UHGV virus genome: UHGV-0298370
DNA from: a virus
Length of the DNA: 19,287 nt
Direction: 5' to 3' (one strand)
A program made the translations under genes and the position numbers. Under the pieces are notes generated by a model. The model was not told where the DNA came from and did not search any database. It worked only from the letters and a program-made list of their open reading frames with translations. How positions within the stretch are numbered: the first letter of the stretch is position 1; every line of letters begins with the position of its first letter. This document shows positions 11,587-18,712 of the stretch, one piece after another.

Positions 11587-13353
11587 ATGAACACCACACT
11601 GACACCCGCAGATCTCGATCCCCGTCGGCAGGCCATGCTGCTGTACTTTCAGGGATACCGCGTAGCCCGCATTGCTGAAATGCTGGGCGAGAAAGTTGCA
11701 ACCGTTCACAGCTGGAAAAAACGCGACAAGTGGGGTGACTATGGGCCGCTGGATCAGATGCAGCTCACCACCGCCGCACGCTACTGCCAGCTCATTATGA
11801 AGGAGCACAAAGAAGGGAAAGATTTCAAAGAAATTGACCTGCTGGCGCGCCAGTCGGAGCGCCACGCGCGGATCGGCAAGTTTAACAATGGCGGTAACGA
11901 AGCCGACTTAAACCCTAACGTCGCCAACCGCAACAAAGGCCCGCGCCGTCAGCCGGAAAAGAATGTTTTCACCGATGAACAGATTGAGAAGCTGGAAGAA
12001 ATTTTCCATTCCTCCATGTTCAACTACCAGCGCCACTGGTGGGAAGCCGGAAAAACCAACCGCATCCGCAACCTGCTGAAGTCACGCCAGATCGGCGCGA
12101 CCTTTTACTTTGCCCGTGAAGCCCTGATTGACGCCCTGCTTACCGGACGTAACCAGATTTTCCTTTCTGCCAGTAAGGCACAGGCTCACGTCTTTAAGCA
12201 GTACATCATAGACTTCGCCAAAGAAGTCGAGGTGGAGCTGAAAGGCGATCCGATGGTGCTTCCTAACGGAGCCACGCTTTACTTCCTCGGCACCAATGCC
12301 CGCACGGCCCAGAGTTATCACGGCAACCTGTATCTGGATGAATATTTCTGGATACCGAAATTCCAGGAGCTGCGCAAAGTGGCTTCCGGTATGGCTATTC
12401 ACAAAAAATGGCGACAAACCTATTTTTCCACGCCATCCAGCCTGACACACAGTGCTTATCCGTTCTGGTCCGGTGCGCTGTTCAACCGTGGGCGCAACAA
12501 GGCCGACAAGGTGGACATCGACCTGTCCCACAGCAATCTGGCCCCCGGCCTGCTGTGCGCAGACGGGCAATACCGCCAGATAGTCACCGTGGAAGATGCG
12601 GTGCGCGGCGGCTGTAACCTGTTCGACCTTGACCAGTTGCGCATGGAGTACAGCCCGGACGAATACCAGAACCTGCTGATGTGCGAGTTTGTGGACGATC
12701 TCGCGTCCGTGTTCCCGCTCAGCGAGCTGCAGGCGTGCATGGTGGACAGCTGGGAAGTCTGGACCGACTTTCATGCACTGGCTCTGCGCCCGTTTGGCTG
12801 GCGCGAAGTGTGGATCGGTTATGACCCGGCAAAAGGTACGCAAAACGGCGACAGCGCCGGATGCGTAGTGGTGGCACCGCCAGCCGTGCCTGGTGGTAAG
12901 TTCCGCATTCTTGAGCGTCACCAGTGGCGTGGGATGGACTTCCGCGCCCAGGCTGACGCCATCAAAAAACTGACCGAGCAGTACAACGTGACCTACATCG
13001 GCATCGACTCGACAGGTGTCGGCCACGGGGTTTACGAGAACGTGAAAGCGTTTTTTCCAGCCGTCCGGGAGTTTGTCTATAACCCCAATGTTAAAAACGC
13101 CCTGGTACTCAAGGCCTACGACATTATCAGCCACCGCCGTCTGGAGTTTGACGCCGGACACACCGACATAGCGCAGTCATTCATGGCAATCCGTCGCGCC
13201 ACCACCGCGAGCGGCAACCGCCCAACCTATGAAGCCAGCCGCAGCGAAGAAGCCAGCCACGCCGATCTGGCCTGGGCAACGATGCACGCACTGTTTAACG
13301 AACCGCTGCAGGGCGAATCCGCCAATACCAGCAATATTGTGGAGATTTTTTGA
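11587..13353 (+). CDS. P: terminase ATPase (large) subunit gpP
   Basis: 588 aa; N-terminus MNTTLTPADLDPRRQAMLLYFQGYRVARIAEMLGE... and body match P2 gpP; divergent from O as in P2. Confidence 0.95.
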   Translation: MNTTLTPADLDPRRQAMLLYFQGYRVARIAEMLGEKVATVHSWKKRDKWGDYGPLDQMQLTTAARYCQLIMKEHKEGKDFKEIDLLARQSERHARIGKFNNGGNEADLNPNVANRNKGPRRQPEKNVFTDEQIEKLEEIFHSSMFNYQRHWWEAGKTNRIRNLLKSRQIGATFYFAREALIDALLTGRNQIFLSASKAQAHVFKQYIIDFAKEVEVELKGDPMVLPNGATLYFLGTNARTAQSYHGNLYLDEYFWIPKFQELRKVASGMAIHKKWRQTYFSTPSSLTHSAYPFWSGALFNRGRNKADKVDIDLSHSNLAPGLLCADGQYRQIVTVEDAVRGGCNLFDLDQLRMEYSPDEYQNLLMCEFVDDLASVFPLSELQACMVDSWEVWTDFHALALRPFGWREVWIGYDPAKGTQNGDSAGCVVVAPPAVPGGKFRILERHQWRGMDFRAQADAIKKLTEQYNVTYIGIDSTGVGHGVYENVKAFFPAVREFVYNPNVKNALVLKAYDIISHRRLEFDAGHTDIAQSFMAIRRATTASGNRPTYEASRSEEASHADLAWATMHALFNEPLQGESANTSNIVEIF

Positions 13354-14060
13354 TGCCCCCAATCCCAACTAACCTCATGACTATCGCGGGACTTCCGGTG
13401 GATAGCTTTTTCTTTGCTTACCAGTATGAGTGGAACACTGGCCCAAAGAGTAGAAACCGTGTACTCACAAAAATGCGCCAGGCAGGCGCGGATTTCTTTT
13501 TTTCCTATGAAGCCCTGAACGATGCACTGCATACCGGGCGTAACCAGATTTTCCTCTGCTGCAGCACAGCATCTGCGCAGGCAATCAAAGCCTGTGTATC
13601 AGCATTCTTAAGCCAGGCCGCAGCTTATACGCACACTGGAAAAATAAAATCAGGCAAAAGTCATCTGGAGCTTCCGAATGGTGCAGTAATTTATTTTACC
13701 GACCTCAGCAGTCTCACCTCCGCACTCAGTGGAAATGTTTACGTGTCAGAGTATGCCTGGAGTGAATCACCGAGAAATATGATTGCCATCGCTAAAGGGA
13801 TTTCTATGCACGCACACTACCACGCCACCTACTACACCACTCCCAGCCCTAACCCAGAGGCACGGCAGGAATATAAAAAGCTATGCAGAAACAACAGCGT
13901 AACCAGCATGGTGTTCACCGCAGATGACGCAGCAGCATCTGGAGCAATGTTGTTTACTGATAACTGGCTGAACGATATGAAAAAAGAATTATCAGAAGAG
14001 GACTGGAAAATGCTGTTTATGTGCGAATGGCCTCTCGCTAGCAAGGAACTGGCAGAATGA
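13353..14060 (+). CDS. terminase-ATPase-like paralog (truncated, diverged copy of gpP central region)
   Basis: ATG at 13353 overlaps the P stop (TGATG) and its stop overlaps the Q start (ATGA). Protein aligns by eye to gpP residues ~140-400 (FAYQYEWNTGPKSRNR / FNYQRHWWEAGKTNRIR; EALNDALHTGRNQIFL / EALIDALLTGRNQIFL; GNVYVSEYAW / GNLYLDEYFW). A 24-nt stretch at 13532-13555 is 23/24 identical to 12141-12164 in P. Confidence 0.6.
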   Translation: MPPIPTNLMTIAGLPVDSFFFAYQYEWNTGPKSRNRVLTKMRQAGADFFFSYEALNDALHTGRNQIFLCCSTASAQAIKACVSAFLSQAAAYTHTGKIKSGKSHLELPNGAVIYFTDLSSLTSALSGNVYVSEYAWSESPRNMIAIAKGISMHAHYHATYYTTPSPNPEARQEYKKLCRNNSVTSMVFTADDAAASGAMLFTDNWLNDMKKELSEEDWKMLFMCEWPLASKELAE

Positions 14061-15085
14061 GCAAACGTAAAAACACCAAGCAGGTAACAGTTGATCACGA
14101 CACAAAACCAAGCAACGGCCCAACGGCTGAGGCTTTCAGCTTTGGTGATCCCATCCCCGTGCTGGACCGCCGCGAACTGCTGGACTATGTGGAATGCGTA
14201 CAGATGGATCGCTGGTATGAGCCGCCCGTCAGCTTTAATGGACTGGCGCGCACCTTCCGCGCCGCCGTGCATCACAGTTCCCCGATTGCAGTAAAGTGCA
14301 ACATTCTGACCAGTACCTATATCCCTCATCCGCTGCTTAGCCAGCAGGCTTTTTCGCGTTTTGTGCAGGACTATCTGGTATTTGGTAACGCCTACCTGGA
14401 GAAACGCACGAACCGCTTTGGTGAAGTTATCGCCCTTGAGCCAGCTTTGGCAAAATACACCCGACGCGGATTAGACCTGGATACCTACTGGTTTGTGCAA
14501 TACGGTATGACAGCCCAGCCGTATCAGTTCACGAAAGGCAGCATTTTTCATCTGATGGAACCGGACATCAACCAGGAGATCTACGGCCTGCCAGGTTATC
14601 TTTCTGCCATCCCGTCAGCCCTGCTCAACGAGTCCGCCACACTGTTCCGCCGTAAGTATTACATCAACGGCAGCCATGCAGGTTTCATCATGTACATGAC
14701 CGATGCCGCGCAGAACCAAGAAGATGTGAACAACCTCCGCAACGCAATGAAAAGCGCCAAAGGGCCAGGCAACTTCCGCAACCTGTTTATGTACTCTCCT
14801 AACGGCAAAAAGGACGGGCTTCAGATTATCCCGTTGTCAGAAGTCGCGGCGAAGGATGAGTTTCTGAATATCAAGAACGTGAGTCGGGACGACATGATGG
14901 CGGCACACCGTGTGCCGCCGCAAATGATGGGGATAATGCCTAATAATGTTGGGGGCTTTGGAGATGTAGAGAAGGCGAGTAAAGTATTTGTACGTAATGA
15001 ATTATTGCCATTGCAAAAAAGATTACAAGAAATAAACAATTTCATAGAAGAAGGTGTTATTGAATTCCAAGAATACCATTTCTAA
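14057..15085 (+). CDS. Q: portal protein gpQ
   Basis: 342 aa; ...EAFSFGDPIPVLDRRELLDYVECVQMDRWYEPPVSFNGLARTFRAAVHHSSPI...NESATLFRRKYYINGSHAGFIMY...NGKKDGLQIIPLSEVAAKDEF... matches P2 gpQ. Confidence 0.95.
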   Translation: MSKRKNTKQVTVDHDTKPSNGPTAEAFSFGDPIPVLDRRELLDYVECVQMDRWYEPPVSFNGLARTFRAAVHHSSPIAVKCNILTSTYIPHPLLSQQAFSRFVQDYLVFGNAYLEKRTNRFGEVIALEPALAKYTRRGLDLDTYWFVQYGMTAQPYQFTKGSIFHLMEPDINQEIYGLPGYLSAIPSALLNESATLFRRKYYINGSHAGFIMYMTDAAQNQEDVNNLRNAMKSAKGPGNFRNLFMYSPNGKKDGLQIIPLSEVAAKDEFLNIKNVSRDDMMAAHRVPPQMMGIMPNNVGGFGDVEKASKVFVRNELLPLQKRLQEINNFIEEGVIEFQEYHF

Positions 15086-15087
15086 TT

Positions 15088-15118
15088 AAAAAAAAGGGAG
15101 GCAACCTCCCTTTTTTTT
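15088..15118. terminator. bidirectional rho-independent terminator between convergent Q and cargo gene
   Basis: A8-GGGAGG-CAA-CCTCCC-T8: 6-bp GC stem, 3-nt loop, flanked by A-run and T-run so it reads as a terminator on both strands; overlaps the TAA of the minus-strand cargo gene. Confidence 0.75.
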
Positions 15119-16883
15119 AAACATTATCGTATAACTCTTGTATTTTCGTTGGATTTGCAAAAAATCTTGCCGGATAGGCATTCGGGTAATTATCTTCAAT
15201 GTACTCTTCAGCACGTTGAATTAATGCACTTAATTCTTCGGAAAGATTTTTTTCATCTGGAACAAGAATTTCTGAGCTATTATGTATCCCAGAAACGTTG
15301 CTCAATAGTACAGACGCATAGTATCTATTACCATGCGTAATAATTAAATGCTTGCGACTATGGGTCGTTTTATCTACTGATAGTAATGTTTTACCGATCA
15401 ACTTATCTATAACTCTAAAATGTAGAACAGTATTGATAAGTTTTAAACCACTTAATCTTGGATTGAAAATAGTTTTATATAGAGAGCCTTCAAAATTTTC
15501 AAAAAACCTACCGCGATTTGATTTTAGTGTCGATACAACCGTATTATTTTTACTTAAACATGCGAGTGCATTGAGCGCCTCATCCAAGTCAATGACTTTC
15601 GTATTTGTCTGTGAATGATCTTCATCTGTTCTTAGTAACTGATATTGATATCCTTCAAGCACTAACTCCCTTGCCAATCTATGTTGATCTGCCTGCTGCG
15701 ATGCAAAATCTCTTCCCAATACTCTATTTTGGAAATTGTTAGCTTTTGTAATTGCATTTGCAGTTAAATTATCAGTATCATCATCTATAACAATGAATCT
15801 AGCTGGCACTTTGAGTCTATATATGTTTTCACCAAGCGCATCTTTACATGCGCCAATACTACTGACTGTTTGTGCACCATTAATGACACTTACATCACGA
15901 AAATCAAAAATCCCTCTCTCTATATTAGGAGCTGCGTTTCGTCTATGAGGAACAACTTCCTTAACCAGTACAGTAATCCCATTATTATAAAACCAAAACA
16001 TATCAGGATTATCTATAGCTGTCTTTTTTATTTCCTCATTCACTTCTGTTTTACCAAGCATATTCCTTATGTTTTTTGTAAATAATCGAGCACCATGCTC
16101 TTCCCACCATTCTGCAACTTGATCACCACTAATAGCCCCGTAAAAAGCTTGATATGGTTCATTCAAAAATCCAAAACGCTCAATTTCAACCCTGTTAAGA
16201 TCAATTTGATTTCGAGAGCCATTCTGTAACCAATGCATCATATCTTCAGAGGATATTAAATGAACCTGAAATCCCCAGTTCTCTTTAGGCTCATCCTCAG
16301 GTGTAAAAGCTGCAGCGTTTAATTGATATTGCCATTCCCGCATATCATTTAATATTTCCTCTGCAGCACCTTTTTTACCTGTATGCGCCATCGCAAAGAT
16401 GAACTTGTATTCAAAACTACTTAAAGCCGCACTTATTTCCCCGCTTTTATTTTGCAATATGGAATCAAATAATTCGTATCTTTCACTTTGTAGCTTCTCA
16501 CAAGCATCCTTAAAACACATAAAATCGGCTCTTGTCCAAGTGCCGTTTCCCGATTGGTGAAATTTTGATTGAACAACAACAACGATTTTTTCGTTATGGT
16601 TGATTGCTATTCCATCTATACCACCATCTTCACTACTATCACATACAGACTCCCCTGCATACTTATCATCCACACATCCTAACTGATACATAGTGAATGC
16701 AGCTAAAGCCCTGCTAGCCATTTTTACATCATAGTCTGCTTGGCCTGGTGCACACTCTCTTTTATGGATGAATTCTTCATATCTCTTACGTAATACAGAT
16801 CCTAGCCTCTGAGCCATAACCTGTGCTGTCGCAGGTGCAGCAATAGCATTATCTTCAAGCCGAATATCAGTTACAAAAGCCAC
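15117..16883 (-). CDS. Mrr-type nuclease-domain protein with AIPR-like architecture (candidate abortive-infection/defence protein)
   Basis: Long AT-rich ORF; start uncertain (TTG 16940 without SD, GTG 16883 with GGAGGG SD, ATG 16817). N-terminal motif SEDGGIDGIAINHNEKIVVVVQSKFH resembles the Mrr catalytic PD-(D/E)xK core (D-G-G-I-D ... Q-x-K). Size and layout are reminiscent of AIPR-family proteins; not verified by HMM. Confidence 0.65.
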   Translation of the reverse strand: MAFVTDIRLEDNAIAAPATAQVMAQRLGSVLRKRYEEFIHKRECAPGQADYDVKMASRALAAFTMYQLGCVDDKYAGESVCDSSEDGGIDGIAINHNEKIVVVVQSKFHQSGNGTWTRADFMCFKDACEKLQSERYELFDSILQNKSGEISAALSSFEYKFIFAMAHTGKKGAAEEILNDMREWQYQLNAAAFTPEDEPKENWGFQVHLISSEDMMHWLQNGSRNQIDLNRVEIERFGFLNEPYQAFYGAISGDQVAEWWEEHGARLFTKNIRNMLGKTEVNEEIKKTAIDNPDMFWFYNNGITVLVKEVVPHRRNAAPNIERGIFDFRDVSVINGAQTVSSIGACKDALGENIYRLKVPARFIVIDDDTDNLTANAITKANNFQNRVLGRDFASQQADQHRLARELVLEGYQYQLLRTDEDHSQTNTKVIDLDEALNALACLSKNNTVVSTLKSNRGRFFENFEGSLYKTIFNPRLSGLKLINTVLHFRVIDKLIGKTLLSVDKTTHSRKHLIITHGNRYYASVLLSNVSGIHNSSEILVPDEKNLSEELSALIQRAEEYIEDNYPNAYPARFFANPTKIQELYDNV

Positions 16884-16985
16884 AGTCCCTCCATAAAGAC
16901 ATCTGGTACAACTCAATGCTGGGAATAGTGCACATTTCAATGAGATAAATCCACTAATAATCTAGGATTTATGAGTTAGCGCGCG

Positions 16986-17004
16986 CTCGTATCCCCGCCA
17001 CGCC
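16986..17004 (-). other. putative cos site (cohesive-end sequence) of the P2-like phage
   Basis: Minus-strand sequence GGCGTGGCGGGGATACGAG followed by CGCGCGC resembles the P2/186 cohesive-end sequence as I recall it (P2: GGCGAGGCGGGGAAAGCAC TGCGCGC); orientation is correct, with the 5' end pointing toward Q. Depends on my recollection of the P2 cos. Confidence 0.45.
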
Positions 17005-17053
17005 TGCCCGCTTTGTGTAGTGGTTTTCATGCAGGTGCCTGATCCACGCAAAA

Positions 17054-17073
17054 GCCCGCCAGTTCTGGCGGGC
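17054..17073 (-). terminator. probable rho-independent terminator downstream of the DUF2971-like gene
   Basis: GCCCGCCAG-TT-CTGGCGGGC hairpin; on the minus strand it is followed by TTTTGCG; lies ~70 bp past the stop of the minus-strand gene 17140-18258. Confidence 0.5.
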
Positions 17074-17139
17074 CTTAGCAAAAACGATCCTCAAACGGTC
17101 ATGCAAATTCAGGCAGCATAGGCATGCACTGTTGTTAGG

Positions 17140-18258
17140 TTAGTTCGTAATGCCAATTTCCTTCAAAACTTTAGCCATTTCCGTCTGACTTAACTTGTTC
17201 CTGAACAAAGGGAAATTTTTCATTTTTTCCGCTCGTTGCCCTTTTGAAATAGTAATCTTTCCTGATGCTGATAACTCAGAGTCAAAAAAATAACATATTG
17301 TTGAATTTGAATTCTCCATATTTGACTTGATACAATTCCATATGCTTTCTTTTTTCATTTCACACATTCTAGGACCAAAAATGATCCCTTTAACAACATT
17401 AGCATCATGATGAAAAATATGTCCAATATTTCGATTTACGCGTCTTTGAACATGCCGCTCACTCCCTATTCCTGCATTTGCCTCTGGAATAAACATTCGA
17501 TATTCAGCTTCATATCTCCAAAATCTATTTTTAGTTAAAAATAACTCTGCAACATTTGCGCTTGGGTCTAGAAGTGAAACCTCTTTAGCCTGATTACTAT
17601 ATTTTATTTGCTTAACTGGAAAATTAAATTTATCTGATGAAAATAAATTTTCTCTTAGCTTCATTCCAGGATGTGGCACGCCATTAATATTAAAATCCTG
17701 CGTTTCATAAATCACAACACAACCACTAAAGCCTGCAGCATAATGCGCCCACATCATACGATCTAACGCATTAGCTGAAAATGACACACTGAATACTGCA
17801 GGAACTATTTTCCTATACAACCTTTCTTTGATACTGTTCTCGCAAAGTGAGACCAAAAATTGGCGTGGTTCAGGAATATTCCCATAAATAGCGGAATTAA
17901 TCACATTGATAGGTAGTAAACCATCATTTATGATCTTACGTATCTCATCAACGTGTGAGTCAAACAGGCTATCTAATGACTCAATGCTACTTTTTATTTT
18001 TTTTCCTCTAAAAATACGATTCAATCCCTTATGTATCTTCAAATTACTCAAATCTAATATGTGACTCAAATTTTCATAGGATTTATCGCAAGGAGAACGC
18101 AATAAAATATCCCATAATTTCAATTTATTATCAAAACGATAATCTATATTGAGATCATTAGGATCATTCAATTGCGCAGGAGCGGAAAAATATAATTCAT
18201 TATAACGAATAGCTTTCTCGAAGAAGAAGTCCGGACGGTAATACTTGAAAAGATACAT
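17140..18258 (-). CDS. DUF2971-like protein (candidate defence-associated protein of unknown mechanism)
   Basis: 372 aa, AT-rich; N-terminus MYLFKYYRPDFFFEKAIRYNELYFSAPAQLNDPND matches the hallmark DUF2971 N-terminal pattern (KY..........LYFS.P..xNDPxD); ATG start; terminator-like hairpin downstream. Confidence 0.7.
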   Translation of the reverse strand: MYLFKYYRPDFFFEKAIRYNELYFSAPAQLNDPNDLNIDYRFDNKLKLWDILLRSPCDKSYENLSHILDLSNLKIHKGLNRIFRGKKIKSSIESLDSLFDSHVDEIRKIINDGLLPINVINSAIYGNIPEPRQFLVSLCENSIKERLYRKIVPAVFSVSFSANALDRMMWAHYAAGFSGCVVIYETQDFNINGVPHPGMKLRENLFSSDKFNFPVKQIKYSNQAKEVSLLDPSANVAELFLTKNRFWRYEAEYRMFIPEANAGIGSERHVQRRVNRNIGHIFHHDANVVKGIIFGPRMCEMKKESIWNCIKSNMENSNSTICYFFDSELSASGKITISKGQRAEKMKNFPLFRNKLSQTEMAKVLKEIGITN

Positions 18259-18712
18259 GACATTACCTATAACATTGCAATATTAACAACCGTATGAAAA
18301 CGGTTTGATTGTATTGATAATATCCTATTCTGCATATACCACAGTGTAAAGATTAATTTTAAATACCATATCCAACAGTAAATCATGTATCGACCGCCAG
18401 ATAAGAAGCTTTTGAAAAACTTGGACAATAATTAATCAAAAGGTAAGAGATACTCTTCAAATACATGACGTTGGCTTCCTCTTTCGTGATAACTATCAAG
18501 ACCAAGTCCATTAGATAATGGACATCAAATATTCCAAGTCAATCCAAGAACAATCATCATAAGCTCTTCCCATCCTGTATCCTCTATCTCACTCTTTTGG
18601 ACATTGAAAGAAGCCCCTCTGACCGGGAATGATTGTTTCCAGCGTTTGACCACGATATACAATATGATATTTGATGTCTTTTGATCAGATGGCTAACGCC
18701 TCGCACAGCTCG

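Follow-up and report, generated by a model that had tools for sequence, protein, structure and literature searches.

What does the long, AT-rich reading frame beside the cohesive-end site (cos) of a P2-like prophage encode, and how could its product act against other phages? The question arises in the virus genome UHGV-0298370, a stretch of 19,287 nucleotides (hereafter the window), in which an open reading frame (ORF) spans 15117..16940 on the minus strand and reads as 607 amino acids from a TTG codon, just as a preliminary description of the DNA had reported. That description took the product for a large protein with an Mrr-type PD-(D/E)xK motif and an AIPR-like layout, a single-protein abortive-infection module of an unusual kind. 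This interpretation is largely right: the AIPR layout and the solitary gene stand, while the match to the Mrr_cat profile, the single domain of about 450 residues and the unusualness do not. We favor, with a probability of roughly 60%, a stand-alone AIPR/AbiU anti-phage protein with a sensor-gated nuclease mechanism, encoded by horizontally acquired cargo that a P2-like E. coli prophage carries in its defence hotspot near cos.

Family membership was examined by profile searches. The protein matches Pfam AIPR (PF10592) with 121.5 bits against a cut-off of 25 (E=7e-35), over profile positions 1-305 of 308, and the same profile is matched by all 85 aligned relatives. The PADLOC model for AbiU (PDLC02357) is matched with E=7.4e-25 and 86 bits, residues 96-582 aligning with profile positions 45-512 of 537 (for this model and for NCBIfam MzaE, residue numbers are those of the 607-residue form). 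The AIPR-like layout proposed beforehand is thus recovered both by the AIPR profile and by an AbiU model covering most of the length; homology to lactococcal AbiU itself is established at profile level, not sequence to sequence. PHROG 1841 is matched as well (E=8e-173). An exhaustive HMMER search returned 4026 related 50%-identity clusters at E<=0.001, and the best 150 of these are mostly of ~560 amino acids and align nearly end to end, which makes this domain arrangement the usual one in a very large family.

Two other identities were considered and rejected. NCBIfam MzaE (NF041935) aligns with residues 267-415 only, which is the core (E=5.5e-16), and its 58 bits compare with an equivalog cut-off of 1050 bits; the PADLOC MzaE match has E=1.5e-13, and the neighbors are a portal gene and cos, with no MzaA-D genes nearby. 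A HEPN reading (PHROG label 'Abi alpha-like'; PMC3506569, of 2012) has no profile or fold support: a HEPN fold with an Rx4-6H motif was not found, and the arginine of the candidate Rx6H lacks conservation.

The protein consists of four parts: a helical N-terminus, a PD-(D/E)xK fold, the AIPR core and a helical C-terminal domain. Their positions are as follows, with residue numbers of motif and domains given for the 588-residue form.

15117..16883, minus strand: AIPR/AbiU-family gene, 588 amino acids, GTG start, identical to WP_021542068.1 (from the ORF, PGAP, orthologue N-termini and profiles)
15117..15119: stop codon of the AIPR gene
16887..16892, minus strand: Shine-Dalgarno sequence GGAGGG for GTG 16883, read from the sequence
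16650..16883, minus strand: N-terminal helical segment, residues 1-78 (AlphaFold2 helices 20-38, 51-69 and 73-78)
16218..16649, minus strand: PD-(D/E)xK (restriction-endonuclease-fold) domain, residues ~79-222
16557..16634, minus strand: motif SEDGGIDGIAINHNEKIVVVVQSKFH of the preliminary description, residues 84-109
15624..16208, minus strand: AIPR core, weakly ParB/sulfiredoxin-like, residues ~226-420
15120..15617, minus strand: C-terminal all-helical domain, residues ~423-588

The start codon had been left ambiguous between TTG 16940, GTG 16883 and ATG 16817. We place it at GTG 16883 because three lines agree: the N-termini of 20 orthologues, the GGAGGG at 16892..16887, which sits 3 nt upstream of the codon, and the PGAP call. 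All 20 orthologues (52-87% identical; Klebsiella, Aeromonas, Pectobacterium, Yersinia, Vibrio, Pseudomonas, cyanobacteria and others) start at this position with MAFV, MALV or MPIV, and the next 20 residues, which include 'EDNAxAAxATA', are conserved among them at the protein level. RefSeq/PGAP uses the same GTG (WP_021542068.1, 588 amino acids) at a 99.9-100% identical locus. The TTG start of the 607-residue form and the ATG start were rejected in its favor.

Within the gene, a promoter-like sequence (TTGTAA-17 nt-GATAAT, 16848..16876, minus strand) follows GTG 16883 and precedes the in-frame ATG 16817. It could give rise to a product lacking the first 22 residues, a segment conserved only within the close subfamily. 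It may be due to chance, since the promoter scan found such sites no more often than in shuffled sequence.

The predicted active site lies in the PD-(D/E)xK domain and comprises D82, D86, D90 and Q105-x-K107 (pattern D-x3-D-x-G-x-D...Q-x-K). Among 131 representatives, one per 50%-identity cluster and down to 27% identity, D82, D86, G88 and D90 are conserved at 100%, Q105 at 97% and K107 at 99%; nowhere else in the N-terminal 225 residues is conservation as strong. The motif noticed from the sequence is thus real and far beyond chance. In the AlphaFold2 model (108-sequence alignment; mean predicted local distance difference test score, pLDDT, 85.8), D90 begins strand 91-95 and Q105-x-K107 falls within strand 100-107, with helices before and after. 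The predicted fold has a restriction-endonuclease-like alpha/beta core with the D...(D/E/Q)xK residues on adjacent strands, and, as modelled, this placement corresponds to the canonical PD-(D/E)xK arrangement.

The glutamine in place of the usual acidic residue at (D/E)xK raises the question whether the domain cuts DNA at all. It would suit a non-catalytic DNA-binding regulator or accessory factor like DndB, in which the nuclease-like domain would serve for DNA binding only, and further observations go in the same direction: DndB, a negative regulator of phosphorothioation, has an N-terminal region assigned to the AbiU1/AIPR family, AIPR genes often sit within restriction-modification operons, and a cloned P4-borne AIPR has no reported phenotype. 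However, the predicted catalytic residues are kept at 97% or more in the 131 diverged representatives, which is the pattern of an active site and argues against such a regulator, and QxK is catalytically competent in Mrr, MspJI and AspBHI. Moreover, the locus lacks a restriction-modification or dnd operon to regulate and the homologues are solitary, so that we regard this explanation as improbable.

How closely the domain is related to Mrr depends on the level of comparison. At the level of the motif, the N-terminus is of Mrr type: EcoKMrr reads GDGGIDGVISLDKLGLEKVYVQAKRW where the AIPR protein reads EDGGIDGIAINHNEKIVVVVQSKFH, and the D...QxK variant is that of Mrr, MspJI and AspBHI. The search against Mrr_cat (PF04471), by which the preliminary description proposed to check its assignment, gave a negative answer. 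The full protein scores 12.5 bits and the N-terminus alone 14.1-14.6 bits against a gathering threshold of 21 (E=0.04-0.17), the alignment is limited to profile positions 27-59, and E<=1 is reached by 4 of 85 relatives; EcoKMrr itself scores 135 bits. The Mrr_cat_2 threshold is missed as well. When the AIPR N-terminal profile was aligned with an EcoKMrr-family profile by hhalign, a probability of 33.6% (P=4e-4) was obtained over 40 columns centred on the motif, with 1.1% for the C-terminal half as a control. The EcoKMrr-family profile is shallow (effective number of sequences, Neff, ~2), since the word-index search yielded only relatives at least 70% identical, and the profile-profile likeness is only suggestive. 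Given the sub-threshold Mrr_cat score and the hhalign probability of 33.6%, we name the region a PD-(D/E)xK domain whose active-site signature is Mrr-like and do not assign it to Mrr_cat.

The ~450 residues that follow had been described as one domain, whereas they divide into a weakly ParB/sulfiredoxin-like core and a separate helical domain. Modelled separately, residues 226-588 reach a pLDDT of 93.3. The core is weakly similar to the ParB/sulfiredoxin fold, which has been published for AIPR, and its invariant positions are N271-x-R273, N300-N301-G302, N335-G-A-Q-T339 and N383-x-Q385-N386. In the C-terminal domain Y469, R490, H517-x-N519-R520 and F575 are conserved. A Foldseek comparison of the C-terminal half with the Protein Data Bank (PDB) found nothing at E<=0.001, and residues ~423-588 gave generic matches only.

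The main rival, which we consider unlikely, is a Type IV-like modification-dependent restriction enzyme in place of an abortive-infection protein. By analogy with GmrSD, BrxU and SspE, the ParB-fold/helical half would recognise modification on phage DNA, whether or not nucleoside triphosphate (NTP) is involved, and the Mrr-like domain, a different nuclease, would cut it while the cell survives. The best matches of the nuclease domain include the modification-dependent AspBHI and MspJI, and the motif agrees with that of EcoKMrr; likeness of a catalytic fold is, however, uninformative on target recognition. No methyltransferase or immunity gene is adjacent, as would be expected of an enzyme that leaves unmodified host DNA intact, and the family is tolerated on a small plasmid as its largest annotated gene. 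Against this, the ParB-like match is weak, and Pfam finds no DUF262, DUF1524 or SRA-like domain. In addition, the P4-borne AIPR is not among the seven protective systems in the eight-coliphage panel of Rousset and colleagues (PMC9122126), and lactococcal AbiU reportedly acts in an abortive or transcription-delaying manner against phages without known DNA modification (PMC13064643). The regulator considered above and an addiction module, treated below, are lesser rivals.

The case for a stand-alone anti-phage protein also draws on where the gene sits. The following neighbors frame it.

14057..15085: portal gene (gpQ)
16986..17004, minus strand: cos-type 19-mer GGCGTGGCGGGGATACGAG, P2/186-type, the cassette boundary, read from the sequence
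17140..18258, minus strand: DUF2971 gene, 372 amino acids, a low-GC single-gene cassette across cos (Pfam, PADLOC and PHROG)

The window belongs to a P2-like prophage of E. coli, and positions 15000-18400 match prophages in four complete genomes at 99.9% identity. In one of these, NZ_CP049967.1, the annotated order is capsid, terminase, portal, AIPR family protein, DUF2971 protein, DinI-like protein and replication endonuclease gpA, so gpA lies further along in the identical locus; past it the prophage continues to cI and the integrase, which is next to rcdA. The AIPR gene and the portal gene are convergent, with 31 bp from stop to stop. On its upstream side, the AIPR gene starts ~100 bp from the cos 19-mer (17004..16986, minus strand), in agreement with the earlier placement beside cos. 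The 19-mer falls inside a 156-bp block (16975..17130) that is 90-92% identical in P2-like phages, and the cohesive ends of P2 and 186 start with the same GGCG(A/T)GGCGGGG. Between the portal gene and cos there is no space for a partner gene. The single-protein character of the module is therefore confirmed by a locus without partner gene, and homologues are solitary too. The AT-rich coding noted earlier also holds, with a GC content of 0.31-0.42 across 15001-18500 as against 0.51-0.63 in the phage structural genes.

This site has a published history. The gpA-gpQ interval adjacent to cos is a defence hotspot of P2-like phages, with 1,650 gene arrangements that include old and tin (Rousset et al. 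2022, PMC9122126); it holds these two and 169 other systems (Rousset et al. 2022, PMC9122126). The AIPR gene occupies exactly this position, between gpQ and gpA and adjoining cos, where content varies among related prophages. Table S5A of that study includes the exact protein, WP_021542068, for example in the arrangement 'hypothetical + KAP_NTPase + AIPR + DinI' (PMC9122126). A nuclease-bearing single-protein module beside cos was thought unusual; as the site is a known P2 hotspot, with the same protein in its catalogue, such a module is to be expected there. An AIPR/AbiU gene at this hotspot is hence already known, both as a RefSeq 'AIPR family protein' and as a catalogue entry, and the restriction-endonuclease-like domain of AbiU has been pointed out before.

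The distribution of the gene bears on its role. The AIPR allele occurs in only 12 of 5426 complete E. coli genomes, against ~1250 that are matched by the portal and cos flanks within the 3.4-kb query. Across cos, the protein of 17140..18258 matches Pfam DUF2971 marginally (22.4 bits against 22), the PADLOC candidate PDC-S31 (E=3e-23) and PHROG 1762. A functional link between the two genes was rejected: they lie on opposite sides of cos, with a hairpin and TTTT between them, and each occurs without the other, DUF2971 being absent from 8 of the 12 genomes with the AIPR allele and present in other genomes without AIPR. In strain E423 an identical AIPR protein resides in a decayed prophage, and the gene across cos is not DUF2971 but a DarT plus macro-domain gene (a DarTG-type pair); a KAP NTPase takes the DUF2971 place in genomes from the Rousset 2022 list. 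The cassette on the far side of cos is thus interchangeable. The hairpin, the GC-rich GCCCGCCAGAACTGGCGGGC followed by TTTT at ~17050..17075 on the minus strand, lies in the conserved P2-like block between the DUF2971 stop and cos and is probably a terminator separating the two cassettes; with no more than four T in its T-run, it escaped the terminator scanner.

Outside this prophage group, AIPR homologues are solitary in Pseudomonas and Vibrio chromosomes, and further AIPR genes were found in P2-like phages of Salmonella and Klebsiella and in one Aggregatibacter phage. A 37% identical homologue is the largest annotated gene (3141..4901 of L007) of a 5.6-kb mobilisable Salmonella plasmid, NZ_CP101377.1, where its neighbors are mob genes and toxin-antitoxin genes, including a RelE/ParE toxin gene; near-identical 5.6-kb plasmids are present in Klebsiella. 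As the largest gene of so small a plasmid, a single AIPR gene seems self-sufficient and tolerated.

Carriage on small mobilisable plasmids, retention in a decayed prophage and a position immediately adjoining cos and the packaging genes would also be in line with a role other than defence, namely addiction or selfish stabilisation of the prophage or plasmid that carries the gene, or a nuclease function in the phage's own life cycle near cos. We judge this very improbable. The rarity of the allele next to flanks found in ~1250 genomes means that the AIPR gene is dispensable for the phage, the locus has no antitoxin-like partner, the family also occupies non-mobile chromosomal sites, and the slot swaps with established defence systems (the DarTG-type pair and those of Rousset 2022).

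Two other genes of this prophage deserve mention. A DUF4041-domain gene (26383..28059 of L001, NZ_CP049967.1, in the same prophage outside the window) is located between the cI repressor and the integrase, apparently a further cargo slot occupied by a defence-like gene. Within the window, a 236-residue ORF at 13350..14060 on the plus strand encodes the ATPase domain only of a terminase large subunit (Pfam Terminase_6N, E=4e-16). The ORF shares a few bases with each of its neighbors, the normal P2-type terminase gene (11587..13353) on one side and the portal gene (14057..15085) on the other, and is present in only 21 of 5426 complete E. coli genomes, always at the same position. Its relatives are in Yersinia phage MLG42 (74% amino acid identity) and Escherichia phage 500465-1 (68%), and its identity to ordinary terminases of the P2 family is only ~35%. 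It may serve as a decoy or modulate packaging.

For the stand-alone AIPR/AbiU anti-phage protein, the following sequence of events can be proposed. The lysogen would express the protein from its own promoter. The ParB/sulfiredoxin-like core and the C-terminal domain would act as a sensor or switch that recognises a product of the phage or its incoming DNA; a nucleotide cofactor might take part, as it does in other enzymes with a ParB fold. Sensing would release the N-terminal Mrr-like nuclease to cut DNA and so block replication and transcription of the superinfecting phage; this would amount to direct restriction or, should the nuclease cut indiscriminately, to abortive infection. What we infer is a DNA nuclease that is infection-triggered or modification-dependent. 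Lactococcal AbiU delays phage transcription and cuts plating 10- to 100-fold (review PMC13064643), and these effects are the only phenotype on record for the AIPR family (PMC13064643).

Several points weigh against this proposal. The sequence tells nothing of the trigger or of how host and prophage DNA are spared. Where DUF262 and DndB carry an arginine (DGQ(Q/H)R), the motif reads NGAQT here, which makes nucleotide binding uncertain. Mrr_cat membership misses the Pfam cut-off, sequence and 108-sequence profile searches gave no meaningful PDB match to the AIPR protein, no AIPR structure has been solved, and no biochemical study of any AIPR protein was found in the literature. Finally, the only AIPR cloned from the hotspots, the P4-borne pFR77, is absent from the seven systems that protected against eight coliphages (PMC9122126). 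The pFR77 protein belongs to the same family and is ~30% identical to the prophage protein, in a distant DDNGIDAI...IVQSKW subfamily.

A broader proposal can be put forward tentatively, although we find it rather doubtful. AIPR proteins with this N-terminus would be widespread single-chain, switch-controlled DNA nucleases in which a ParB/sulfiredoxin module, possibly nucleotide-gated, and the helical C-terminus license the Mrr-like domain, in parallel to GmrSD, BrxU and SspE with a different nuclease and the reverse order; the prophage copy would then restrict directly and not by suicide.

As a finding, the prophage gene adds little, being annotated and catalogued, with a nuclease-like domain noted before in AbiU. 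The remaining value lies in the mechanism of the whole AIPR family, which comprises ~4000 clusters at 50% identity and whose sole reported phenotype is weak. The E. coli allele offers a convenient way in: one gene, in a genetically tractable host, with a clear start codon and the defined candidate catalytic residues D82, D86, D90, Q105 and K107.

Comparison with named systems places the protein as follows. The published P2 hotspot is the same gpQ-gpA interval at cos and lists the identical accession WP_021542068 with varying neighbors; there the protein is catalogued only, and the cloned AIPR came from the P4 hotspot. With MzaE of the MZA/MADS systems it has the AIPR core in common; only the core aligns, and MzaA-D genes are lacking nearby. 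Similarity to lactococcal AbiU (AbiUi/AbiU1), of the Pfam AIPR PF10592 family and COG1479 (per Makarova 2013), is at profile level; the lactococcal gene is plasmid-borne, whereas the E. coli allele is on a P2-like prophage in a different host, at a locus without the AbiUii/HEPN partner gene. With Mrr-type nucleases (EcoKMrr and the catalytic domains of MspJI, AspBHI, LlaBIII and Avs4) the protein shares a motif-level signature, to which it adds two invariant upstream aspartates, D82 and D86; it lacks an Mrr_N or SRA-like reader, and its nuclease domain is instead fused to the AIPR core. GmrSD, BrxU and SspE combine a DUF262 ParB-fold NTPase with a DUF1524 HNH nuclease. The AIPR protein has no Pfam match to DUF262 or DUF1524, its NTPase activity is at most putative, and its signature is NGAQT in place of the DGQQR of DUF262. 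Its domains are arranged in the reverse order, and its nuclease is of the PD-(D/E)xK type instead of HNH.
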